From a virus, in IMG/VR virus record IMGVR_UViG_3300028581_000026, positions 22,554-86,553 of that record: 64,000 nucleotides of DNA. One strand, 5' to 3'. Of this stretch, positions 1,755 to 38,296 are shown in pieces. Under the pieces are notes generated by a model, which did not search any database, was not told where the DNA came from, and saw nothing but the letters and a program-made list of their open reading frames with translations. The position numbers and the translations under genes were made by a program. How positions within the stretch are numbered: the stretch's first letter is position 1; the number at the start of each line of letters is the position of its first letter.

Positions 1755-2375
1755 TTAGTTGATTTTATTTGAAATGTCAATTTGTCTGATAACACAATCC
1801 AAGATATATTTCCCAACATTGGGATCAACACAATTTCTTATTATTTGGTCTTTTCTATGTTTTAGTTTAAACACCCTTAAATCAAAATATCCTTTGTCAG
1901 ACATACCTCTTTCGTTATGGGTTAAACCATCTTTAATTTCAATTTTGGGAATATCAATGTTTGTCCAAAACAAATGTCTTCCCAATTTTATAGTTGGCTG
2001 AACAAGTGTCTCATAGTATGGTTTAACATTTTCAACAACGAATTTTATATTGGTGTTTTTTGTATAATTTTGTAAGAAAATAATCTCAGCCCATAATTTC
2101 ATATCTGGCATAACTGAATCGTAACTTCCACTTTTACTTGCCATCATTCTAACTTTGCTATGACTTTGACAAGGTGGACTAGACCAAATAAAATCAAAGT
2201 TTCTCCAATTCTTGGCAAGGTATTCGTGAGCATCACCAACAATTACATTATCATTCGGAAAAAAATGTTTATATACATTTGCAATTTCTTCATTATACTC
2301 AATGGCTGTTACTTCAACATTTTCCCAATATTTTCTATTTCCCCCAATTCCAGCATATAGATTTAATACATTCAT
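1755..2375 (-). CDS. DNA (cytosine-5) methyltransferase, short phage type
   Basis: NLYAGIGG, WSSPPCQSHS, VVENV, C-terminal RNCV. Confidence 0.9.
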   Translation of the reverse strand: MNVLNLYAGIGGNRKYWENVEVTAIEYNEEIANVYKHFFPNDNVIVGDAHEYLAKNWRNFDFIWSSPPCQSHSKVRMMASKSGSYDSVMPDMKLWAEIIFLQNYTKNTNIKFVVENVKPYYETLVQPTIKLGRHLFWTNIDIPKIEIKDGLTHNERGMSDKGYFDLRVFKLKHRKDQIIRNCVDPNVGKYILDCVIRQIDISNKIN

Positions 2376-3433
2376 TGTTCAATATTTTTTAATATGTGTG
2401 CAATAACGTCCACCGTCCATCCATTTCCCAACATTTTTCTCGCTTGAGTTGATGTGACAACATTAGTATAGTTATCAGGAATTGTTTGTAGTCGTTCCAT
2501 TTCAATTAAATGTAGTTTTCTATATCTCCAAGTATTATCAACAATATAATCCAATGGTGACTCTACTGTAACCAAACAATTACCTTTACCATTTTTCTGC
2601 TGTGCATACATCTTATGTTCTTTACTCCTAGGTGTTGAGTCCTTACCAGTTTCCTGTCTTATCTTTCTCCTCATATCTTTACCCTCTTGAGTTCTTGTTT
2701 CATAAAATGAAATTGGTGTGTTATCTGACAAATTAACAACAATTTTTTTACTATTAATTGCCTTGAAAGTTATTGCTAATTCATTCTGTTCAAAATCTAT
2801 ACTAGACCTTAAATTTGAAATTTTTTCATCAATTGATAACCCCATCGGTTGTTCTTCAACTATATCTTTCAACATAATTTTCTTATCAATAGGTTGGGTT
2901 ACATTGGGAATGTTTGTCCAATACAATCTTCTTCTGTTTTGTGCTGAAACAAGTGCTGAATTGATTTCAATAGGTTTGACTCCCAAGACATCAGAAATCA
3001 TATTTTCCCACTTCTTTAACATCTTAACGTTTTCTAGTAGAAAATATTTTGGTTTAACTTCTTTCAGTATTCTAACATATTCCCAAAATAGATAAGATTG
3101 TCCTTGGAACTCAAATCCATCATTTTTCAATCTTAGATATTCATCCAAAGTAGTAATCTCATAATTGTCTTTTGTTGCCATACCTTTCATATTACCAGCA
3201 AAAGACAAGTTTTGACAAGGTGAACCACCAAATAAAATGTCTATTGCAGGTAGATTACTACTAGTTATTTCTTTTATGTCCCCCAATTGAATTGTATTGG
3301 GGTAATTGTGTTGTGTTACTTTAATAGCATACTTATCCACTTCTGAGGCAAAGTAATTATCATACTTTATCCCAGCACGATTCAATGCAACTTGGCCACA
3401 ACTAATTCCATCAAACAGACTTAATACATTCAT
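2372..3433 (-). CDS. DNA (cytosine-5) methyltransferase
   Basis: SLFDGISCG, GGSPCQNLS, LLENV, QNRRRLYW, GNGWTVDVI; paralog of 901-1734 with a different variable region. Confidence 0.95.
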   Translation of the reverse strand: MNVLSLFDGISCGQVALNRAGIKYDNYFASEVDKYAIKVTQHNYPNTIQLGDIKEITSSNLPAIDILFGGSPCQNLSFAGNMKGMATKDNYEITTLDEYLRLKNDGFEFQGQSYLFWEYVRILKEVKPKYFLLENVKMLKKWENMISDVLGVKPIEINSALVSAQNRRRLYWTNIPNVTQPIDKKIMLKDIVEEQPMGLSIDEKISNLRSSIDFEQNELAITFKAINSKKIVVNLSDNTPISFYETRTQEGKDMRRKIRQETGKDSTPRSKEHKMYAQQKNGKGNCLVTVESPLDYIVDNTWRYRKLHLIEMERLQTIPDNYTNVVTSTQARKMLGNGWTVDVIAHILKNIEQ

Positions 3434-22993: not shown

Positions 22994-23794
22994 TTACATC
23001 CACTCAAATAAATCATTGGATAAGTTTCTCAACTTTCTCAAACTTTTTTCCTTTATCTGGCGCACCCTCTCTTTCGTCAAATTAAAGTCACCACCGATGT
23101 CTTCCAATGTTCTTGGTGCTCCTGTCAACCCAAAATAATCTTCCACTATAACTCGTTCTCGTTCATCCAAACAGGTCAATAGTCCCAGCAATTTGGTTCT
23201 AAGAATGTCTTTGGTGTTAAATGACTCATCCGGCATATCCGCCTCATCATTTTTGATAACATCAAATAAACTATCACCCTCTTCATTGATATCCATATCA
23301 AGGTTAATCATTGATGGTAATGACGCAAACTTACCTTCCAATTCACCACCCTTGTCTTCAATCTCCTTCTTGGCTCTATGTAAGTCTTGGACAACATTAA
23401 CTGGGAGACGAATGGTTCTTGCATTGTCATTCAAACTTTGAATAATTGATTGTTTAACCCACCACACAGCATAGGATATAAACCTCAAATCTTTATTCCA
23501 GTCAAAGTTCTTGATTGCTTTCATTAAACCATAATTACCTTCAGCAATTAGTTCATCCAAATCAAGTCCTTGATTTTGATATTGTTTGGCAACCGTAATT
23601 ACAAATCGTAAATTACCTTCCAATAGTTCTTTGTTAACATCCTCAATCTGTCTTGGTGTCAATTCACCAGACTTCATTAGGACGGATAGTTCTTTCTCCC
23701 TCTCAGGAGTCATAACTTTCTTCTTACGAATGTCCTTGAGGTAGGATTGGATCTCTTCTTGATTAATTGGAATACCTGAATTTTTCTCTTTCAT
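22994..23794 (-). CDS. RNA polymerase sigma70 factor (RpoD/RpoS-like, no region 1.1)
   Basis: YLKDI, NLRFVITVAKQY, FISYAVWWVKQSI, RTIRLPVN, TLEDIG...LTKERVRQI. Confidence 0.95.
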   Translation of the reverse strand: MKEKNSGIPINQEEIQSYLKDIRKKKVMTPEREKELSVLMKSGELTPRQIEDVNKELLEGNLRFVITVAKQYQNQGLDLDELIAEGNYGLMKAIKNFDWNKDLRFISYAVWWVKQSIIQSLNDNARTIRLPVNVVQDLHRAKKEIEDKGGELEGKFASLPSMINLDMDINEEGDSLFDVIKNDEADMPDESFNTKDILRTKLLGLLTCLDERERVIVEDYFGLTGAPRTLEDIGGDFNLTKERVRQIKEKSLRKLRNLSNDLFEWM

Positions 23795-24357
23795 TTTGAA
23801 TATTTTTTTAACAATTCTTTTTCTTCGTCAGTCAATGACTTCATACCACTAACATTAATCTTGTCCAAAAGTTCATCCAAGGTGGGAATATGTTTAACAA
23901 CTTCCTTTTTGTCATCACCGAATAAACGATTAAATCTATCACTAAAGTGTCTGCTACTAGGAGGTGGTCCCCATTCTCCTTTTGGTTTTTTTGGTACATC
24001 ATTGAATCCAAGGAATAAATCATCCCTAAGTTCATCTTGTTCATCTTCTGAATAATCATCATTTGTTGCACACAAATCCGTACCAAATAGATGTTGTTCA
24101 TTCTCTTTATTAAACCAATATGACATTTTGTCAGTTTGTGCTAATACAAAGGGGATTGATAAGTCACCCAAGATTGCATTAAAGAAATCTGTGGCCTGTT
24201 TGAAAGATGACCTGGTTTCAAATGTCATTAGGATGGTTTGTTCCCCATAAAAATATTTAACTTCTTTTGAGGTGAGGGTTTGGACTTCTTTTGCCAAAGA
24301 GATGACAAAATCTTCCTGTTTTTTGTGTGACACAAAAACTGTTAATAGATACTTCAT
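23791..24357 (-). CDS. Hypothetical protein with C-terminal DUF6576-like motif
   Basis: LDELLDKINVSGMKSLTDEEKELL. Confidence 0.65.
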   Translation of the reverse strand: MKYLLTVFVSHKKQEDFVISLAKEVQTLTSKEVKYFYGEQTILMTFETRSSFKQATDFFNAILGDLSIPFVLAQTDKMSYWFNKENEQHLFGTDLCATNDDYSEDEQDELRDDLFLGFNDVPKKPKGEWGPPPSSRHFSDRFNRLFGDDKKEVVKHIPTLDELLDKINVSGMKSLTDEEKELLKKYSK

Positions 24358-24399
24358 ATTGATGTGTTTTAAATTGTGGAATATAAAGGTAAGAAACTT

Positions 24400-26619
24400 T
24401 TATTGACTTACACTACTGATATTATTTTCCTTTGTAATTTTAACAATGTTATCCGCCCAATTACTAACAAGTGGGTTATGAGTTATAACAAACAACTTCT
24501 CAAAATAGTTCTTTATTTTACCAAAAAATTCACCAACCATATCAAGATTTTCATTTGATATTTTTCCAAACACTTCATCCATTACCACAATATTCGGTTT
24601 TGGTAAAGAACTTATTTTAGTTAGTACCGCTCTCAACGCCAATGATGCCACAGTTCTTTCATAACCTGATCCTGATGACATAAGTTTCTCAATCTGGGTA
24701 TTATTATCAATCATTATAAATTCAACCTCATTCTTGTCATTTATGTTAATCTCCAATCTAAAATGACAGCTATCTTCCAATAACCTTTGTAACTCAGAAT
24801 TCAACATCGGAATCATTGTTTTCATTATGGTTTTGGATATTCCATTCTTCCCAAAGATTTCCAAATATAACTTATAGATTTTCTCCTTGTTAGCTTCTTC
24901 TTTAATCTTAACAATTGTTTGTTCATTCTGCTCAATCTTATCTTTCAATGACTGAACCTGATAATTGTTTGAATCAATAATTCTTTGAACGGAAGTCTTC
25001 TCCCTATCTAATTCCTCAATTCTTAGGTTAGCTTTGATAAGTTGGGTTTCAATCTTGCTGTTGGTGGATATGTTATCCTGTAACAAATTGAATTTTTCCA
25101 ACTTATCTTCCAATCCTTTAATTTTCATCACATACCCTTCAATTGTCAATTCATATTTTTCTTTGATAAGTTTGTTTTTCTCATACTCATCAAATTCTTT
25201 TTTGAGTTGGACATACTTGGCTTCTTTGTCAATTATAATATTCATTTCCCCCTCAAATTGGTTCTTTTGTATGTTATAATTGTCAAGTTCAGATATTTTT
25301 GATTGGGTTATGGATGCCATCATCAATTCAATCCCACAATGTTCGCACTTAATCCCACCATCAACGGAGGATTTAAGTTCATTGATTGATTTGATTTTCT
25401 GTTCAATCTGAACAATTTCTTTGTATAGAACTTTATGGGTTTCCTTTAACTTATCGTGTTCTTGTTCTGAATAAAACTCTGTTGGCTCAATAACCTTGAG
25501 TTCTTTTAATTGTCTATCAACACCTTGTTTTAGGGTTTTAATTCCCATAATTTCGCTTTGAACATTTTCCGGTACAATCTTGGCGATTTCAATATCAATA
25601 TCCATATGTTTGGATTTCAATAGATTATCCCTATATTCTTGTCCCTTGATTATTCTGTTCTGAACATCAATCAAATTGTTTTGTTGGGTGATATTGTCTG
25701 ATGTTAATTCATTTATCCTGGTGGAATATCCATCATTATCTGACTTCAGTTTCTCACTGGAATAAACATTTGATAACATTGATTTTGAAAACTCCGAATA
25801 GATTTCCTTTCCAATTTCTTCTTTCTTTTTAAGGAAGTCCAATCCCATAAACTTGGATAATACTTGTCCTCTTGCTGTGGGTTTGGAATCAATTAACTCT
25901 TCAAGGTTTGTTGCCGTGGTTAGAATTGTCATTAAGAAATCATCCTTTGTTCCAATGGATGTTTTAATAAAGTTTTCCGTTTCTCTTCTTTGTTCCCCAG
26001 TAAAGTTCTGTAATGAACCATCTGATAATTTCTTATAGAAGTCCAATTCAGTTTTTACATTCCAGGTGTCATCCTTTTTCTTTTTTCTTTCAATATTTCT
26101 GATGATGATATATTCATCCCCATCAATTATTATTTCACCTTTGACATGGACTTTATCGTAGTTTGAGAATCTATTGAATATTTCTTCAGCTTTGGTTGTC
26201 TTGGTTGTTTCATTGAAGAATAAGAATAACAATAGATCAACGGTTAGAACGGTGTTATGAGACACAATACCATTTGTATAATATTGATGAACTTCAGCAA
26301 CTTGGATATCATATAGGTCATCTTTAATGTCCAATAATTCAATGTTGGAGACATTACTACTACCACTAATAGTTTGTATGCTTTCACCAATTTTAATCTC
26401 TTTAAGAACAACGAATTGGTTATCGGTATTTTTTAACTTATGATAATCGGCACCTTCAACAGACATCCCATTATCAAGTTCGCATCTATAAACTTCAGCA
26501 TTTTTTTCAGTTATACCACACCATTCAATGTTTTTATACCCATATGGTGTGTTTACTTTAAACCCTAAATCACCATATTTTTGGTATAAATTATATAAAT
26601 CCCCTATTTTAATTTTCAT
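24400..26619 (-). CDS. sbcC: Split-intein C-fragment fused to the C-extein of SbcC/Rad50 (gp46-like) ATPase
   Basis: IntC ends VSHN followed by T; then coiled coil, zinc hook CEHCG, signature SSGSGYER, Walker B VVMDEVFG, H-loop ITHN. Confidence 0.92.
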   Translation of the reverse strand: MKIKIGDLYNLYQKYGDLGFKVNTPYGYKNIEWCGITEKNAEVYRCELDNGMSVEGADYHKLKNTDNQFVVLKEIKIGESIQTISGSSNVSNIELLDIKDDLYDIQVAEVHQYYTNGIVSHNTVLTVDLLLFLFFNETTKTTKAEEIFNRFSNYDKVHVKGEIIIDGDEYIIIRNIERKKKKDDTWNVKTELDFYKKLSDGSLQNFTGEQRRETENFIKTSIGTKDDFLMTILTTATNLEELIDSKPTARGQVLSKFMGLDFLKKKEEIGKEIYSEFSKSMLSNVYSSEKLKSDNDGYSTRINELTSDNITQQNNLIDVQNRIIKGQEYRDNLLKSKHMDIDIEIAKIVPENVQSEIMGIKTLKQGVDRQLKELKVIEPTEFYSEQEHDKLKETHKVLYKEIVQIEQKIKSINELKSSVDGGIKCEHCGIELMMASITQSKISELDNYNIQKNQFEGEMNIIIDKEAKYVQLKKEFDEYEKNKLIKEKYELTIEGYVMKIKGLEDKLEKFNLLQDNISTNSKIETQLIKANLRIEELDREKTSVQRIIDSNNYQVQSLKDKIEQNEQTIVKIKEEANKEKIYKLYLEIFGKNGISKTIMKTMIPMLNSELQRLLEDSCHFRLEININDKNEVEFIMIDNNTQIEKLMSSGSGYERTVASLALRAVLTKISSLPKPNIVVMDEVFGKISNENLDMVGEFFGKIKNYFEKLFVITHNPLVSNWADNIVKITKENNISSVSQ
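26254..26619 (-). mobile_element. Split intein C-fragment (IntC, 122 aa)
   Basis: Block B-like GADYH, block F LYDIQV, block G YYTNGIVSHN, +1 Thr. Confidence 0.9.
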
Positions 26620-27619
26620 TTTTTAAAAATTTTACACACTTTTTAATAACCTCATCTTTTTCTTTTCTATACTCAGAATCCCATATCACTAACACATCAA
26701 AATTATGTCTATTGGCTAATTTAATCTTAACCTCATCTTTTTTCCAAATATCTTCAGATGTTATACTTTTACGGAAAGGATTTGGGGTATCTGTAGTTAT
26801 AAAAATATTAGGATTTGCATGATAACTATCTCCATTGTATTCAATAATTTTTTTATTAAAAGTATCGGTAAAGTCATATCTATAAAACCCTTCATCACCA
26901 GTTAATACAAATTCACCACCTTTTTTAGCAAACATAACATAATTCAATTCTTCAATATTTTCGTAATATTTTAATAATTCAAAAAACAAATCTTGTGACA
27001 CTTTTGAATATCCTGATTTTAAATTACCGTTTTTATATAGTGATTGTTGCCATTTTTTTTGTCTTTCAAAAAATATCTTTTTACCCTCATCTTCCCCATA
27101 TTTCTCAATACATTTAACTAAACTAAATTTATTTTGGAATTCTGAAACTTTATTTTTTGACTCTTCAACTGAAAATCCTTTTTTTATCCAATATTCAACA
27201 CTTCTTGGTGAGTGTAATTTACCTTCTTTAAGTTTTTTTTCTTGAAAAAGTTTAACTCCATCTTTTTCACCATATTTTATTATGAATGACCTTTCAGTGT
27301 TCATCAAGTGTAATTCTGTTTGAAGTTTAGCATCTTCTAATGAAAATCCTCTACTTATCCAATATTCAATTAAATTTGGTTTCATTTCTTTAACTTTCTT
27401 TTTCGATTCTTCTTCAGTTAAACCCCTTTGAATCCAATATTTAACACTAAATGCAGAACCTTTAGCAATAGTAATTCCCGCATCTTTTAATCTTTTAACA
27501 ATTGTTGATGTATCAACATTGTATTTTTTGGATATAAAAGTTGTGGATTTCATTTCATTGATATATAAATTTATTATATCTTGAATTTGATTTTCCGTAA
27601 AATTACACATTTTTCCCAT
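26609..27619 (-). CDS. Free-standing Vsr/DUF559-like homing endonuclease between intein halves
   Basis: N-terminal HTH, three YWIxxGxx.E repeats, KYGE..G repeats, C-terminal YDF...IIEYNGDSYH...KD..K...VLVIWDSEY. Confidence 0.8.
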   Translation of the reverse strand: MGKMCNFTENQIQDIINLYINEMKSTTFISKKYNVDTSTIVKRLKDAGITIAKGSAFSVKYWIQRGLTEEESKKKVKEMKPNLIEYWISRGFSLEDAKLQTELHLMNTERSFIIKYGEKDGVKLFQEKKLKEGKLHSPRSVEYWIKKGFSVEESKNKVSEFQNKFSLVKCIEKYGEDEGKKIFFERQKKWQQSLYKNGNLKSGYSKVSQDLFFELLKYYENIEELNYVMFAKKGGEFVLTGDEGFYRYDFTDTFNKKIIEYNGDSYHANPNIFITTDTPNPFRKSITSEDIWKKDEVKIKLANRHNFDVLVIWDSEYRKEKDEVIKKCVKFLKNEN

Positions 27620-27660
27620 ACCTTTTTAGAAATAAATATACCCATATAACTAAAAAGGTA
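27619..27660 (-). promoter_or_regulatory. Start-occluding hairpin with putative late promoter in its loop
   Basis: Minus strand TACCTTTTTAG-ttatatgggtaTATTTATtt-CTAAAAAGGTA|TG; perfect 11-bp stem ending on the A of ATG. Confidence 0.7.
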
Positions 27661-27674
27661 AGGAGTGAATGTAA

Positions 27675-28280
27675 TTATTTTAATTCATTGGGTAAAAACC
27701 CTAACTTATTAATTATATAGTCAATATCAAATTCTATTTCAATCTCCGTATCACCCCTAACGCATTTCCCGCCAAAATTACTAGGCGTTGATTCCACCAC
27801 CGAGATACCATTACATTTGTCAAAATCTATTTTTTGATTTTGTCCATAAGATAAGAAATTGGAGAATTCAATATTTTTGATATACCATTTTTTGAATGGG
27901 GTTACATCTTCATCTGATAATAGTCTATTATCAACTATTCTGTCAAGATTGAATATTTCATCTGACAATTGATTTTGATTTTTGGTGTCAAGGTATGATT
28001 TAACCAATTCATATTGATAATTTTTATCAAGGATATTGAAGGAGACATCAACCGATTGATTTGTTGTTTCAACTGATTTTGTCTTGGTTATAACATTGAT
28101 ATTGGTTGAGTTATATTTTTTTTGGAAGTAATGTTTTACACTTTTTATTTTTTCTTGTGTGAAGTTTTCGGCATAATCTTCCCAAATAACCTGGATGTAT
28201 GGATTATCAAATTTGTTGAAATCTATATCTTTTATCATAAAATTGTAATTGTATTCTGGTGGTGGATTAAATAAATCCAT
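27675..28280 (-). CDS. sbcC: N-extein of SbcC/Rad50 fused to split-intein N-fragment
   Basis: WYIKNIEFSNFLSYG, Walker A STPSNFGGK, then CVRGDTEI... Confidence 0.9.
   Translation of the reverse strand: MDLFNPPPEYNYNFMIKDIDFNKFDNPYIQVIWEDYAENFTQEKIKSVKHYFQKKYNSTNINVITKTKSVETTNQSVDVSFNILDKNYQYELVKSYLDTKNQNQLSDEIFNLDRIVDNRLLSDEDVTPFKKWYIKNIEFSNFLSYGQNQKIDFDKCNGISVVESTPSNFGGKCVRGDTEIEIEFDIDYIINKLGFLPNELK
27678..27764 (-). mobile_element. Split intein N-fragment (IntN, 29 aa)
   Basis: CVRGDTEIEIEFDIDYIINKLGFLPNELK; block A C-x-x-G-D-T-x-I. Confidence 0.85.
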
Positions 28281-28329
28281 ATTTGTTATTGGATGTTTTG
28301 GATTTTATCAAACTTTCGTAAACATTTGT

Positions 28330-28400
28330 GTTATAAGTAATTGCTACCATTCCGTTTCAAATGGAGTTTCGTGATGAAAAACAAAAAGAATTTCCCAACC
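28330..28400 (+). mobile_element. Orphan copy of the cassette 5'-end sequence seen at 36121
   Basis: GTTAT..GTAA.TG...AAT..A.TT.CGTG.T.GAAAA...CCCA.C colinear with 36121-36190. Confidence 0.45.
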
Positions 28401-28618
28401 TTTTCAGGTCATTCCTACCGCAGGTCACTTACAGGAAACGCCCCACAACAAGAATTTTATAGGTTTTCAATTTCTGTTTTGACTAATAAAATATCACAAG
28501 AGGTTGAACCGTCCCTACCATAGGGATATAATTCATCATATTCATCTCTTAAACTTAACCACTTAATTTTTAATTCTTTTAATTTTTCCATAAGTTTAAT
28601 TGTTTTTAAAGTTCGTTA

Positions 28619-31249: not shown

Positions 31250-31468
31250 CTATTTTATTAATTCAATTTGTTTTTTTAACTCATCACATATTTCATATTC
31301 TTCGTGTTTAATGAAATATGGTAGTAAATAATTTTCTAATATCTCCAATCTTTTATGAGTTTCAAGTCCATCCATTTTGAAATCTGATTTCTTAACATCG
31401 TTATATGTCTCCCACATTACTTTGTTTAATAAATCGTAATTACTCATACCACCTTTGTTTAAACTCAT
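31250..31468 (-). CDS. Hypothetical protein (UVR-like EEYEIC motif)
   Basis: YFIKHEEYEICDELKK. Confidence 0.55.
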   Translation of the reverse strand: MSLNKGGMSNYDLLNKVMWETYNDVKKSDFKMDGLETHKRLEILENYLLPYFIKHEEYEICDELKKQIELIK

Positions 31469-32303
31469 TTTTTTTGTTATTAAACTCCTCTTCAGTCAAT
31501 ATGATTAATTCATTAGGATCATTGAACATTTCTTCAATGTGGGGTTGAGTACCAAGCAAATCCCCACTTTCATAAGCTTCCTTTATTTCGGTTACTTCCT
31601 CAAGGTATTTTTTATAAGTTTCCATCAATTTATTATTTGGGTTTGGTGGATTAACGATATAATTGTTTAATAAGTTCCAATCATCCAATAATGTATTTAA
31701 CACTTCAAAACATAATTCTTGTGTAATTTTACTTCGTTCATAAGATCCCTTTCTACCTTGAGTTCCAGTTTTGCTTCCCCTTGGTGCTGGTTGGTGGTGA
31801 CATTCCGTATTCCCATTCTTGCAAACAGGTCTTGGTATCCAAGTATTACTATTTGTCCATATATCTGTGGGTTTGGCTCGTTCATCACCATATACGCAAT
31901 ACCAAATGGTATGTCTTGTGAATTCTTGCATCCAGGGCATCTTTCTCAACATCCCCCTTGGATTTTCAATAAAGAATACCATATTGGGATTTATCTTTAA
32001 CCATTCCTTTATTAAAGATATAAAATGTTGATTAACGATATCACATTTCTTGGCATATTCACTTTTGGGTTCAGTTCCGTTTCTATGGTGGGATATTGCC
32101 GCAATTGTGTATGTTGTGCAATCTGGGGATGCCCATATAAAGTCCGGAACGAAGGGAACATCATTTAAGGTTAATTCACCAATATCTTTTGATAAATTAA
32201 TTCCCTCATATTGTTCCCAATCAACCGAGAATACCTCCATTCCCAATGATTCCGCAACCTTTCCTATTGACCTGCTCCCAGCAAATAATTCCAATACTTT
32301 CAT
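31440..32303 (-). CDS. DNA (cytosine-5) methyltransferase-like protein
   Basis: VLELFAGSRS, WASPDCTTY, FIENPRG, KPTDIW. Confidence 0.85.
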   Translation of the reverse strand: MKVLELFAGSRSIGKVAESLGMEVFSVDWEQYEGINLSKDIGELTLNDVPFVPDFIWASPDCTTYTIAAISHHRNGTEPKSEYAKKCDIVNQHFISLIKEWLKINPNMVFFIENPRGMLRKMPWMQEFTRHTIWYCVYGDERAKPTDIWTNSNTWIPRPVCKNGNTECHHQPAPRGSKTGTQGRKGSYERSKITQELCFEVLNTLLDDWNLLNNYIVNPPNPNNKLMETYKKYLEEVTEIKEAYESGDLLGTQPHIEEMFNDPNELIILTEEEFNNKKNEFKQRWYE

Positions 32304-33870: not shown

Positions 33871-34446
33871 TCACAAGTTTTGACTTATGTTTGAACCTTT
33901 CATATAAACAGCACCAGTATTTGATACCAATTGTTCAATCTTATTATTGAGTTCAGTTATTATCTTATCCTTATCACCCATTTCCCTTCTCAATTTCATC
34001 AAGGTTTCTTGTAACATAACCATCTTTTCATTTGGTTTTTCAACCTCCTTGATTACCTCAACCTGGACAATTTTTTCCACTATCTTCTCCACTTCCACCG
34101 GTACTTGGACAATTTTTTCTACTATAACCTCATTTGTGGAAAATATTTTCTGCTCAATTGGGACTTCTTTGATTATTTCAACAATCTTCTCAACCTCTTT
34201 AATGACCTCGATTGGGATCTCTTTAATCGTCTCTTTTTCCACATATTTAATAACCTCAATCGGAATTTCTTTCTCAACATATTCAATAATTTTTTCTGTG
34301 TTATTACCAATTAAACCATATCTCTCAATATCATATCCCTTCTTAAAACATTTCTGAAAGAACTTATCAACATCTTCAATGTTATTTAACTTACAATAAT
34401 CAGTTAAATCCTTTTGGTTTTGTTTATTGAGGGTTAGTTTGTTCAT
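33871..34446 (-). CDS. Protein with EKIVE/VP repeats and coiled coil
   Basis: EVIKEVEKIVEIIKEVP...EKIVQVPVEVEKIVEK. Confidence 0.7.
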   Translation of the reverse strand: MNKLTLNKQNQKDLTDYCKLNNIEDVDKFFQKCFKKGYDIERYGLIGNNTEKIIEYVEKEIPIEVIKYVEKETIKEIPIEVIKEVEKIVEIIKEVPIEQKIFSTNEVIVEKIVQVPVEVEKIVEKIVQVEVIKEVEKPNEKMVMLQETLMKLRREMGDKDKIITELNNKIEQLVSNTGAVYMKGSNISQNL

Positions 34447-35257
34447 TATAGTTATATATTATTATCTCCTGACTATTCTTGGAGTTCTTATTTCTTGCCA
34501 CCTTCTCATAATCACCTTCCAATATCTTATGATTAAATCCATCATCCAATAACTTATAAATAATCTCAGACTTCTCGTTGTTCTTATGTTCCCCCAATAC
34601 ACCACTCAACATAAATGAATGACCCATATTGTTTAATTCAACAATATAATCATACAACTGACTTTCTTTTGTCTTTGACCAATAAGCATTATATCCCGCC
34701 TCAGTATTTGTATATGGGGGATCAATATAAATCATACTGGGATTTTTGGGTTTAATCTCACTAAAATCCTTGGATATAAAATAAATCTTATCTTTGTGGT
34801 TGGAGATATGTCCAACAAATTCATTCACCTTCTTCTCGGTTGAAGCATTCCAGGTTCTCTTTCCAAATGTCTGATTAAATTCAAAACTCTTATTGAACCT
34901 CATCATATTGTTTGTACAAGATAACATTAATGCCCATAACTTCTCTGGGGACTTATTGGTATTGAAACTTTTTCTCAATTCCATAAACCCCTCAGAGTCA
35001 TCCTTATTGACCAATACGGACTTTGTTTTGGTTATGATAGATGTTGAATCATTAACCAAATCTTTGTGGATTCCAACCAATTCTTTTATAATGTCATTGA
35101 CCAATATCTTTTCATATCGGTCAACAACATTGGTATAGACCGAACCTCCACCACAAAATAAATCAACGAAATATTTCTTGGTGTAATCGAAGTTTGGAAT
35201 TAGTTGGTCTAATAACTTAAACTTTGAACCGGTGTAATTGAAGGGGGTATTAACCAT
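34424..35257 (-). CDS. dam: Dam-like (D12 class) N6-adenine DNA methyltransferase
   Basis: PFNYTGSKFKL, VDLFCGGGSV, MRFN...FN..FG, YIDPPY; start re-called to ATG 35257. Confidence 0.9.
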   Translation of the reverse strand: MVNTPFNYTGSKFKLLDQLIPNFDYTKKYFVDLFCGGGSVYTNVVDRYEKILVNDIIKELVGIHKDLVNDSTSIITKTKSVLVNKDDSEGFMELRKSFNTNKSPEKLWALMLSCTNNMMRFNKSFEFNQTFGKRTWNASTEKKVNEFVGHISNHKDKIYFISKDFSEIKPKNPSMIYIDPPYTNTEAGYNAYWSKTKESQLYDYIVELNNMGHSFMLSGVLGEHKNNEKSEIIYKLLDDGFNHKILEGDYEKVARNKNSKNSQEIIIYNYNEQTNPQ

Positions 35258-36029
35258 TTGCGAGTGTTTCATTTTCGTTAAGAATGTCTTCATATGAATT
35301 AATAACAAATTTAAGGAAAGGTCTTGGATTATCCAAATCCACAAAGGAATATTTGTTATTTATTACATCATAAATTCCAAATCCGTGTTTCTTTATATTC
35401 TCCCCATAGTTTTGTTGTACAACTGAACCTATCATATATGCTTTCTTACCATTTGGAATATCAAAAATTTGACGTTTGTGTATGTCTCCACATAGAATTA
35501 GGTCACACCCATCAAACTTATCCACTTCATATCCTGTCTCAAACTTATATCCAATGTCGGTATATAAACCAACAATGGGTCCGTGAAATAATCCAATCTT
35601 TAATCTGTCTGACTTCTCTATAATTGGTGGGATGTTGTGTTCAAATAATGAATAAACAACCCAATCTATATTCTCGTCTTGATATACACCTCTATCCTTG
35701 TAATAAACAATATTGTCATTGTCCATTGATTGAATGATGGGGGTTAATGTGTCTAGTCTTGATAAGTTGTTTTCAAGCATGTCATGGTTGCCTACAATTA
35801 TAATTGTTTTGGCTATCTTTGAACATTCATCCAATACCCACCTTACCATTTCAATAAGTTCAGGACTGACTTGGTTTTTACTATGGACTAAATCACCTGT
35901 GAATACCACTCTATCAGGTTTTATTTCCTTGAATTGATTGAACATATCCGTAAGGATTGTTTTATATAGGTCGTGGTCTTTAATTAATCTCAAATGTAAA
36001 TCTGAGAAATGAACCAATTTTTTAATCAT
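35250..36029 (-). CDS. sbcD: SbcD/Mre11 (gp47-like) metallophosphoesterase nuclease
   Basis: SDLH, TGDL, GNHD, FHG, GDIHK, GSVVQQNYGE. Confidence 0.92.
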   Translation of the reverse strand: MIKKLVHFSDLHLRLIKDHDLYKTILTDMFNQFKEIKPDRVVFTGDLVHSKNQVSPELIEMVRWVLDECSKIAKTIIIVGNHDMLENNLSRLDTLTPIIQSMDNDNIVYYKDRGVYQDENIDWVVYSLFEHNIPPIIEKSDRLKIGLFHGPIVGLYTDIGYKFETGYEVDKFDGCDLILCGDIHKRQIFDIPNGKKAYMIGSVVQQNYGENIKKHGFGIYDVINNKYSFVDLDNPRPFLKFVINSYEDILNENETLANG

Positions 36030-36931: not shown

Positions 36932-38296
36932 TTATTTTTTAATTAATTTTAATCTTTCACATCTTTCTTCAATAGTTTGTATGTCTTCCTCTGTTAGATT
37001 TAGATATTTGTAAATGTTTTCATCATCTACTTTCTCTAATTTTGAAAAATCAATATGTGGAACTAGAGATAGTGTAGATATTGTAATTGTCTGTTTATTT
37101 TTTATAAGAGAAACACAAAATCTGAAAACCTTTGTATTAATATAATTAAAGAAATTAATCATATCATTCTTATTATTGAAATTCCAATTAACTAAACTTT
37201 GATTACAAATTTCCCCAACATTTCCAATGAGAACTCTACCCATGGAATATGGATTGGCACCATATTTTGATGTTGTGAATATTTTATAAAGATTGAAATC
37301 ATTCTTGATCCTATCAGTTAAATATTCATTTGGTAAATATTTAACAGAACCTTTTTGTTCAGAAACATGACATTTCACACAATGTCCATTATCAATATCA
37401 ATAAGTCTATTATCATTTGATGATAAATTATAATATGATTGAGGTCTAAAATTCAACATATCTAATTTATCAAATTTTAAAAATTTATCCAAAACCTTTA
37501 ATTCATTTGTATTTAATTCATATGGTAAAAAGTTCAAAGCAACTTTTCTATTATAAGCAACACCATTTAATTCAAATGTATCTTTTGTGTTTTCATTATC
37601 AATAACAAAATATGAAACACCTCCTGATATTTCAGTTCCCTTAAACGGATTTCTGGAATAATGAACAATTTTATCAACATTATAACCATTAATCATCTTT
37701 TCCCTGAATTTTTTATGTGATGGAAGGTTCATCCAATTAGATTTAGTAATCATAATTACATATCTATCCGCTAACTCAAAAGCCTTATCTACGAATTCTG
37801 GATATATACTAGAGGATCTGTTTCCACCTTCGCCACGAACTCCGTTATATGGTGGATTTGTTATAACACAAGTAAATTTCTTTTTCAATTCATCTAAATT
37901 ATTTTTTTCATCAAGGATGTTATAATTATATCTATTAAAATCCAATAAGTTTTTAATTTTTAGTATCTTTTGAACCTTTATCATAGTTGATTTAGCAATA
38001 TCTACCTGTGCTTTTGAAATATCATTTCCAGCAATTTTACTATGTATAAATTTATTTCTTTCTTCATTATCTGGAATTATATTTTCTAAAAAATTCCAAA
38101 ATTCTAAATATAAACACAACAAAAATGTTCCTTTCCCACAACAAATATCTAAATATGAAAAATTAACATTAAATTTTTGAGAAATCAAATCTCTACAAAC
38201 AGAAATAGGAGTCATCGTTGATGAATCCGAACTTTCTAATTTATCTATTTGCTTGAATAGGATATCTATTCGCAATTGTTGTTCTTTTGAAATCAT
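36932..38296 (-). CDS. Eco57I-like N6-adenine methyltransferase with C-terminal TRD
   Basis: MTP, YLDICCGKGTF, VITNPPY, GTEISGGV, IYKYLNLTEEDI. Confidence 0.9.
   Translation of the reverse strand: MISKEQQLRIDILFKQIDKLESSDSSTMTPISVCRDLISQKFNVNFSYLDICCGKGTFLLCLYLEFWNFLENIIPDNEERNKFIHSKIAGNDISKAQVDIAKSTMIKVQKILKIKNLLDFNRYNYNILDEKNNLDELKKKFTCVITNPPYNGVRGEGGNRSSSIYPEFVDKAFELADRYVIMITKSNWMNLPSHKKFREKMINGYNVDKIVHYSRNPFKGTEISGGVSYFVIDNENTKDTFELNGVAYNRKVALNFLPYELNTNELKVLDKFLKFDKLDMLNFRPQSYYNLSSNDNRLIDIDNGHCVKCHVSEQKGSVKYLPNEYLTDRIKNDFNLYKIFTTSKYGANPYSMGRVLIGNVGEICNQSLVNWNFNNKNDMINFFNYINTKVFRFCVSLIKNKQTITISTLSLVPHIDFSKLEKVDDENIYKYLNLTEEDIQTIEERCERLKLIKK

Follow-up and report, generated by a model that had tools for sequence, protein, structure and literature searches.

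How can a phage obtain a working SbcC, an ATPase of the Rad50 family, from a gene that is broken inside its ATP-binding loop? The question is posed by a locus at positions 24,400 to 28,280 of a 64,000-nucleotide stretch of viral DNA, called the window here and corresponding to bases 22554-86553 of the 86.5-kb IMG/VR virus record IMGVR_UViG_3300028581_000026, a metagenome-assembled contig with a CheckV completeness of 29%. The sbcC gene of this locus is spread over two open reading frames (ORFs) with a third gene between them. The interpretation that we regard as very probable is that of a fractured gene: a class 1 mini-intein sits between the Lys and the Thr of the Walker A motif, and the intein is itself split by a free-standing homing endonuclease gene of the EDxHD, or Vsr-like, type. 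To judge by its sequence and by those of its relatives, the fractured gene is real and probably functional.

The three ORFs lie on the minus strand, each in its own frame: 27675-28280 (201 aa), 26609-27619 (336 aa) and 24400-26619 (739 aa). A spacer of 55 nt separates the N-fragment ORF from the endonuclease ORF, and the stop of the latter overlaps the ATG of the C-fragment by 11 nt. The N-fragment ends in STPSNFGGK, followed directly by CVRGDTEI...NELK and a TAA stop. The C-fragment starts with MKIKIG; GADYH occupies residues 56-60, YDIQV occupies residues 103-107, and NGIVSHN runs up to residue 122, after which TVLTVD follows. An earlier note, made from the letters of the window, had described these ORFs, a 29-aa N-terminal intein half (IntN), a 122-aa C-terminal half (IntC), the 336-aa middle gene and an FGGK-TVL junction, and every one of its sequence statements proved exact. 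The features of the locus are as follows.

27765..28280, minus strand: sbcC N-extein, 172 aa, with a ~125-aa extension, the beginning of the ATPase head and the P-loop up to its Lys (...PSNFGGK); residues 1-172 align with the 5' part of the uninterrupted genes
27678..27764, minus strand: IntN, 29 aa, from Cys1 to ELK, with its TAA stop at 27675-27677
27614..27664, minus strand: predicted RNA hairpin in the 55-nt spacer, enclosing the endonuclease start codon and the bases just 5' of it, from folding against shuffled sequences
26609..27619, minus strand: putative free-standing homing endonuclease gene, 336 aa, with a helix-turn-helix (HTH)-like region, three helical repeats and a Vsr-like (EDxHD-type) domain at residues ~202-336 (window 26612-27016)
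26254..26619, minus strand: IntC, 122 aa, from its own ATG, with block B His60, block F Asp104 and the terminal His121-Asn122
24400..26253, minus strand: sbcC C-extein, 617 aa and stop, beginning with Thr+1, with coiled coil, CxxC zinc hook (window 25336-25347), signature motif, Walker B and H-loop

What does the gene look like where nothing interrupts it? The earlier note had suggested looking for such alleles, and they are plentiful. When IMG/VR was scanned with the C-fragment, 36 distinct related loci came up, the window not counted, and 31 of these carry the gene as a single ORF of ~790-830 aa (29 complete; two, L030 and L037, cut by the contig end). Residue 172 of the N-fragment (K) there abuts residue 123 of the C-fragment (T) with nothing between. 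The empty junction reads ...NFGGK-TVL(T/S)VDLL, or ...NTGGK-TTLTIDLL in the three most distant loci; junction sequences were displayed for 24 loci, and the other five complete loci have 617-aa C-exteins by the same pattern. The gene in the window thus contains 151 residues that are missing from most alleles, and their removal restores a colinear P-loop and, by comparison with the 31 uninterrupted loci, a colinear host protein, as is expected of a class 1 intein.

The remaining five of the 36 loci (L002, L010, L012, L013 and L033) are fractured at the identical point, which with the window makes six fractured alleles. IntN is 29 aa long in these loci (30 in L013), IntC begins with its own ATG, and the stop and start fall at the same positions. 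The 336-aa endonuclease gene is present in four of the five and absent from L010, where ~40 nt separate the IntN stop from the IntC ATG (L010:4957-5001); the gene was either lost from that locus or never there. The overlap of its stop with the start of IntC measures 11 nt in four alleles, and in L033 it is 4 nt. No frameshift or internal stop is found in any of the six. An assembly error that conceals a contiguous intein had been envisaged at the outset. Could the stop codon be such an error, or one of sequencing, behind which a contiguous intein lies together with an endonuclease domain in the same frame? The window is indeed a metagenome-assembled contig, and contiguous versions of the intein exist elsewhere. 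However, the N-fragment, the endonuclease and the C-fragment occupy three frames; four contigs from other samples repeat the stop, the spacer, the endonuclease ORF and the ATG that overlaps it, and a further one is split without the endonuclease; and the contiguous forms have 0-9 linker residues and no endonuclease domain. Because six independent contigs share the stop and start, and because of the three frames, we take an error of this kind to be ruled out, its chance of being the explanation being next to nil.

Are the 151 residues of this fractured gene an intein? Cys1 (Cys173 of the N-fragment) stands immediately after the P-loop Lys and is invariant in all six fractured alleles. For IntC, an exhaustive HMMER search of 1.84 billion cluster representatives returned 630 relatives at E <= 0.001, and residues were counted over 131 rows, namely the window and those 130 of the best 150 representatives that cover the domain. 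Block B His60 is conserved in 131 rows, block F Asp104 in 130, His121 in 130 and the terminal Asn122 in 131, and the +1 residue is Ser in 96, Thr in 26 and Cys in nine. With Thr123 at +1 the window presents the full series of class 1 residues: a nucleophile at position 1, the block B His, the block F Asp, the terminal His-Asn and a +1 nucleophile. The Thr that is usual in the TxxH of block B is Ala in the window, and in the family it is Ser in 82 rows, Ala in 42 and Thr in six. IntC scores 21.7 bits against the NCBIfam model TIGR01443 intein_Cterm, above the cut-off of 15.6 bits. Its sequence matches in the PDB are VidaL (E 4.4e-6) and CatC (E 4.3e-4), and a six-row profile brings these to 1.5e-8 and 3.4e-5. 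An AF2 model of IntC with eight extein residues has a predicted local distance difference test score (pLDDT) of 93.4. Foldseek places VidaL (6vgv) at the top of the matches to this model (E 4.6e-8, TMq 0.81, root-mean-square deviation (rmsd) 1.6 Å, 28% identity), and it gave 53 matches at E <= 0.001, among which those listed are all inteins or bacterial intein-like (BIL) domains. By this model IntC folds as a HINT domain.

Structure prediction of the pair, with residues 163-201 of the N-fragment and 1-130 of the C-fragment, scored 0.75, and the highest of three controls scored 0.01; the 0.75 mark is attained by 58 of 80 solved complexes and by 2 of 110 mismatched pairs. At least 85% of the contacts were common to the three pairing runs, with a partner pLDDT of at least 72. 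The predicted interface takes in Cys1, block B, block F and the C-terminal HN-T, and sets IntN against IntC strands 2-5 and 20-23. The halves are encoded as separately translated proteins with an IntN of 29 aa and an IntC of 122 aa, and the same is true of the five further loci. The earlier note's identification of an intein that is split atypically and has a short IntN is therefore well founded, given the HINT fold, the conserved catalytic residues, the predicted pairing and the precise empty alleles, and the structure prediction that it had proposed came out in its favor. Two of its other ideas fared worse. The Thr at +1, which it had implied to be special, is an ordinary choice in the IntC family. 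Association of an acidic IntN by charge was also considered and rejected, since both halves are net acidic, IntN at -4 and IntC at -6 (-2 to -8 across the six alleles); the first 35 residues of IntC taken alone are neutral to slightly basic (0 to +4).

Where within the intein does the break fall? Natural inteins with a short IntN are broken at one of two sites: S1, after strand beta2 (VidaL, 16 aa; PolB16, 15 aa), or S2, after the first helix (AceL-TerL, 25 aa; GOS-TerL, 37 aa), the known atypical IntN ranging from 15 to 37 aa (PMC13014065). Residue 14 of CatC aligns with residue 17 of IntC, and residue 25 of the VidaL chain with residue 2. Because of these alignment offsets, the break is likely the S2 site of the TerL inteins.

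Might the SbcC fragments simply reassemble without splicing, the intein halves acting as a dimerisation handle? The halves are predicted to bind, as this would require, and there is a precedent in an Aeromonas phage, whose fragmented NrdA is assembled through interaction domains derived from a mobile element (PMC3045599). Yet the residues of the splicing chemistry are kept, Cys1 in six of six alleles and His60, Asp104, His121, Asn122 and the +1 nucleophile in 130-131 of 131 rows, and without splicing the Lys and Thr of Walker A would be kept apart by a domain of 151 residues. We consider non-covalent reassembly quite unlikely, and prefer an intein that splices.

If the insertion had destroyed sbcC, or if the intein were inactive, the fragments would be decaying pseudogenes that the phage tolerates, and the restriction of the fracture to the window and five of its 36 relatives would suit such a history. 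The ratios of nonsynonymous to synonymous substitution (dN/dS) tell against it. Among the five similar alleles (window, L002, L010, L012 and L013), dN/dS is 0.07-0.22 for IntN, 0.07-0.17 for IntC and 0.10-0.18 for the endonuclease; over both exteins and both intein halves it is 0.07-0.22, with synonymous sites near saturation between alleles. IntN, IntC and the endonuclease are under purifying selection. The six alleles have, as described, intact reading frames, and they share an invariant zinc hook (C425-E-H-C428 in the numbering of the C-fragment), signature (S649-G652), Walker B (D681-E682) and H-loop (H714). Decay is thus very unlikely, and we continue with a fractured gene that is probably expressed and spliced.

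That the host protein belongs to the SbcC/Rad50 family, as first proposed from the sequence, was upheld. Among the PHROGs, the C-fragment hits family 77 ('SbcC-like subunit of palindrome specific endonuclease', E 3.3e-33), and Pfam adds weak matches to SbcC_Walker_B (22.8 bits, cut-off 27) and SMC_N. The uninterrupted allele L003 matches the NCBIfam Rad50 model PRK01156 at E 9.3e-13, far below the equivalog cut-off, from model position 3 and protein residue 134 onward; the invariant CxxC hook points the same way. A PDB profile search with the C-fragments returned inteins only and no Rad50 or SbcC chain, and Pfam and NCBIfam gave nothing for the N-fragment as a whole. The first ~125 residues of the N-fragment (window 27905-28280, minus strand) precede the Rad50-like head and are conserved in all relatives; this extension has no family match in Pfam, PHROGs or NCBIfam. 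Across this SbcC clade the Walker A motif reads P-(P/S/Q)-N-(F/T)-G-G-K-T (window 27765-27790, minus strand, and the junctions of L003-L029), and more distant intein-bearing SbcC homologues retain G-x-N-G-x-G-K.

What, then, is the gene between the halves? It had been read as a Vsr-like endonuclease, and the fold of its C-terminal domain agrees. The protein falls in phrog_22677 (E 3e-24) and has 590 homologues at E <= 0.001; among 120 homologues listed, two carry the JGI name 'very-short-patch-repair endonuclease'. NCBIfam has no match to it. An AF2 model built from 38 sequences has a pLDDT of 88. Foldseek with the whole model gave nothing at E <= 0.001, Vsr being the top match at E 0.054. VIA-align of residues 202-336 alone gave Vsr itself as the best match (1cw0_A, Z 11.5, rmsd 3.2 Å, 116 residues aligned), with 3hrl (Z 10.4, rmsd 2.1 Å, 91 aligned), 1vsr (Z 10.3, rmsd 3.2 Å, 111 aligned) and the catalytic domain of I-Bth0305I (3r3p_A, Z 10.3, rmsd 3.0 Å, 96 of 97 aligned, 21% identity) close by. 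Two mitoribosomal-protein chains reach Z 10.0 and 9.2, and other PD-(D/E)xK enzymes Z <= 7.3. Residues 1-50 resemble HTH DNA-binding domains (Z 5-7.3), and three helical repeats of the form YW-x-x-x-G-(L/F)-(S/T)-x-E-E stand between the HTH and the nuclease domain. Seven residues, E236, D249, D252, E260, D264, H267 and D314, are invariant in the 38 sequences, and the spacing from E260 to H267 equals that from Vsr position 62 to His69, as in the Vsr-like family of PMC2677866. The modelled fold and these residues fit a Vsr-like homing endonuclease of the EDxHD type. Its target would be the uninterrupted sbcC allele, by analogy with the EDxHD prototype I-Bth0305I, which cuts the uninterrupted allele beside the insertion site (PMC3239194). 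No pseudopalindrome like the I-Bth0305I target was seen in the junction sequences by eye, no dedicated search having been made.

From this arrangement we infer how the cassette may arise, be expressed, splice and spread. The endonuclease gene would have inserted into the loop that follows the intein's first helix, an S2-type atypical site, and not in the usual endonuclease site. The three ORFs would be expressed from one strand, the endonuclease start being masked by the hairpin and the C-fragment start overlapping the endonuclease stop. The hairpin over the start codon has a folding energy of -17.8 kcal/mol (z -3.98), which none of 200 shuffles equalled. A scan of 24200-28500 for promoter and terminator consensus sequences was uninformative (24 promoter-like sites against 26.3 expected, and 0 terminators). 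The two products, ExtN(172)-IntN(29) and IntC(122)-ExtC(617), would meet as IntN docks on a largely pre-formed IntC and completes the HINT fold. A thioester at Cys1, attack by Thr+1, cyclisation of Asn122 and an O-N shift would follow, and would yield an SbcC of 789 aa whose P-loop (...NFGGKTVL...) is intact. Where infections are mixed, intein-less sbcC alleles would be cut by the endonuclease, and repair from the fractured allele would copy the whole cassette, the process known as homing.

Does the distribution of the cassette look like that of a mobile element? Synonymous divergence (dS) is 0.6-1.4 in the intein and endonuclease, mostly lower than in the exteins (1.3 to saturated), and protein identity is 70-89% for the intein halves and endonuclease and 55-71% for the exteins. 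A maximum-likelihood tree of the C-exteins (35 rows, the truncated L030 and L037 being left out) requires five changes for the six fractured rows, at least three of them forced by well-supported branches, and places the window in a supported clade of four rows with three intein-less alleles, at 88% identity. The lower dS and the patchy placement on the extein tree suggest that the intein and endonuclease are younger than the divergence of their host genes. The final 30 nt of the N-extein show 63% identity between the window and L003, the nearest intein-less allele, and 87% between the window and the fractured L002. This order is reversed elsewhere, which hints at a short co-conversion tract in the last ~20-30 nt of the N-extein (noted at window 27700-27764, minus strand).

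How did the intein come to be split? Among the best 150 of the 630 representatives, IntC starts at residues -1 to 12 in 84 (83 of which begin with Met), is internal in 57 and is cut within the domain in nine. SbcC-like C-fragments, whose exteins share only 19-66% identity, are the closest relatives of IntC. Among more distant cases with an N-terminal domain, ten that were scanned include seven terminase large subunits and one SMC_N protein, and ten internal cases include SbcC-like proteins, two SbcD-SbcC fusions, terminases and a DnaB-type helicase. The fractured arrangement is common in metagenomic sbcC and terL genes, and the window is a member of a large natural family. The supposed rarity of short-IntN split inteins therefore holds among characterised inteins and not in sequence data, where 84 of the best 150 representatives have the common split point. 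In five contiguous forms (P0137, P0140, P0142, P0150 and P0163) a single ORF holds the N-part of the intein and IntC, inserted at the same site of the P-loop and collinear where the others are split; IntN has a BLAST match in four of them and none in P0150. P0163 is collinear with the split alleles residue for residue, its first 51 IntC residues being 69-76% identical to those of the five similar alleles and its N-extein 31-34%. This collinear contiguous form supports an order of events, reconstructed from present-day sequences, in which a mini-intein would have entered the sbcC P-loop first and the endonuclease cassette would have entered the loop after its first helix later. Two side observations concern the same family. 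L033 (3322-7199) holds a diverged cassette at the same site, with an IntC 45-47% and an endonuclease 56-57% identical to the others, CSINH in block B and Ser at +1; its intein type has a contiguous relative in P0137, whose IntC is 59% identical and which lies in a close sbcC allele. The distant relatives P0140 and P0142 have their contiguous intein in a single polypeptide that joins SbcD to SbcC.

A broader generalisation is tempting. In this intein lineage, free-standing homing endonuclease genes may have a second site at which they land repeatedly, the loop that follows the first helix, in which case the P-loop inteins of sbcC and terL would be the largest natural pool of split inteins with a short IntN; this is a tentative proposal, to which we give somewhat less than an even chance. 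If it were true, four stages would stand side by side in one sbcC lineage (empty, contiguous mini-intein, split with an endonuclease gene, and split after endonuclease loss), the origin and decay of split inteins could be reconstructed directly, and dozens of diverged natural pairs of 29-aa IntN and 122-aa IntC, with Ser, Thr or Cys at +1, would become available for protein semisynthesis.

Several observations count against the fractured, homing intein, or against parts of it. In the Walker A motif, P-x-N-F-G-G-K-T, Pro replaces the canonical first Gly, which makes the ATPase a divergent one. The Hint-domain HMMs that had been proposed as a check, run on IntC or the C-fragment, gave a divided answer: TIGR01443 is above its cut-off, and Pfam Intein_splicing (15.1 bits, cut-off 35.8) and PT-HINT (14.8, cut-off 27.7) are both below theirs. 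The pairing score may reflect likeness to solved split-intein complexes such as Cat and VidaL, and is no proof of binding. The endonuclease has no meaningful match to a Pfam family, neither its single sequence nor a 38-row profile matched any PDB sequence at E <= 10, and its assignment is founded on fold and conserved residues. The hairpin is clear in only three of the five endonuclease-bearing alleles (window, L002 and L012) and weak or absent in L013 and L033. A label shuffle on the C-extein tree was not significant (202 of 500 as low), so the tree speaks for a scattered distribution but gives no number of transfer events, and repeated loss could explain part of the patchy distribution. The co-conversion signal, finally, comes from a single window of 30 nt.

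Which parts of this are already known? That fractured genes with split inteins and a free-standing Vsr-like endonuclease exist, as the earlier note had stated, is documented by Dassa 2009 (PMC2677866). As in the window, a phage DNA-metabolism gene is there divided into two ORFs that carry the N-half and the C-half of an intein; a free-standing Vsr-like homing endonuclease gene lies between the halves on the same strand; and the endonuclease overlaps the downstream ORF, with a hairpin 5' of its gene. The hosts differ, being gp41, IMPDH, DnaE, NrdA, NrdJ, DNA ligase and terminase, and the main text of that paper mentions sbcC, Rad50 and gp46 not once. The paper also reports an SbcD-like gene that a Vsr-like gene has fractured, with no intein involved. 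Nearly all of its split inteins, with one exception, break at the canonical endonuclease site, whereas the break here is probably of S2 type.

The closest parallels to the intein itself are the short-IntN pairs. IntN and IntC are 25 and 104 aa in AceL-TerL, 37 and 115 in GOS-TerL and 30 and 104 in Cat, a consensus of the atypical TerL inteins, against 29 and 122 in the window, so that all combine a short IntN with a long IntC (PMC11766414, PMC13014065). These three share with the window a phage origin, a P-loop ATPase as host, Cys1 and, as is likely for the window, a split after the first helix, and the start of CatC coincides with that of IntC within ~3 residues. The link to terminases extends to the IntC family, distant members of which stand at the N-terminus of TerL fragments in the seven of ten scanned cases given above. 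AceL-TerL, GOS-TerL and Cat differ in having a terminase host and Cys+1, where the window has SbcC, Thr+1 and an IntC ~18 residues longer. Cat and the window IntC have low sequence similarity. VidaL, the closest solved structure by both sequence and fold, is a naturally atypically split and Cys-dependent intein; it is split at S1 with its 16-aa IntN, and the split here is ~8 residues further on (PMC13014065). The endonuclease is best compared with I-Bth0305I (PMC3239194, 3r3p), in which an N-terminal DNA-binding region, here predicted from the HTH-like fold, precedes a C-terminal nuclease of Vsr fold, as in the modelled protein. That enzyme resides in a group I intron of recA, and the one here is free-standing in a split sbcC intein; it is also longer (336 aa), contains the three helical repeats and has no sequence-level match to 3r3p. 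Thus the fractured-gene arrangement, the short-IntN type of split and the endonuclease family were all known already, and an SbcC/Rad50 host was not met in the searched literature: in open-licence PMC and bioRxiv papers, none was found on an intein in the SbcC/Rad50/gp46 gene family.

Only a handful of natural short-IntN split inteins have been characterised, AceL-TerL, GOS-TerL, VidaL and PolB16 (PMC13014065, PMC10189870), and they are sought-after tools, the short half being accessible by peptide synthesis. To these the locus contributes a pair with Cys1, Thr+1 and an IntN of 29 aa, in a host not met in the searched literature, as a candidate tool for protein engineering, and the IntC family, with 84 of its best 150 representatives at the common split point, is a source of orthogonal pairs. 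The relatives are also a compact natural experiment on intein splitting and the spread of the cassette, with 31 empty loci, four and the window split with the endonuclease, and one split without it; the contiguous forms in more distant sbcC genes complete the comparison of states. For the phages themselves, the arrangement implies that their recombination nuclease may depend on protein trans-splicing in its ATP-binding loop.

What kind of genome houses the locus? The window, with a G+C content of ~30%, most likely comes from the genome of a jumbo-type phage, because related contigs reach 258-270 kb. Around sbcC, genes match PHROG families for a phage sigma factor, a primase, an exonuclease and several DNA methyltransferases; these neighbours and the IMG/VR virus record place the gene in a phage, the setting in which fractured genes are expected. 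A tRNA scan of the window found none, no second intein-like ORF was found in its 64 kb with the family HMM, and no second copy of the endonuclease gene was found in the 86.5-kb record. One further gene may bear on the function of SbcC.

35250..36029, minus strand: candidate SbcD/Mre11-like metallophosphoesterase, PF00149 above cut-off, with weak matches to SbcD models

This Metallophos ORF lies ~7 kb upstream of sbcC on the same strand, non-adjacent to it, and on its sequence is a likely candidate for the SbcD-like partner nuclease. Four ORFs match phage DNA methyltransferase families (window 2372-3433, 31440-32303, 34424-35344 and 36932-38296, all on the minus strand), an unusually dense set for 64 kb; the interval from the sbcC fragments to the sbcD-like gene holds two of them. 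Directly 3' of sbcC, the ORF at 23791-24357 (minus strand) carries a DUF6576 motif at its end (E 4e-10), and the phage sigma factor gene (22994-23794) comes after it.

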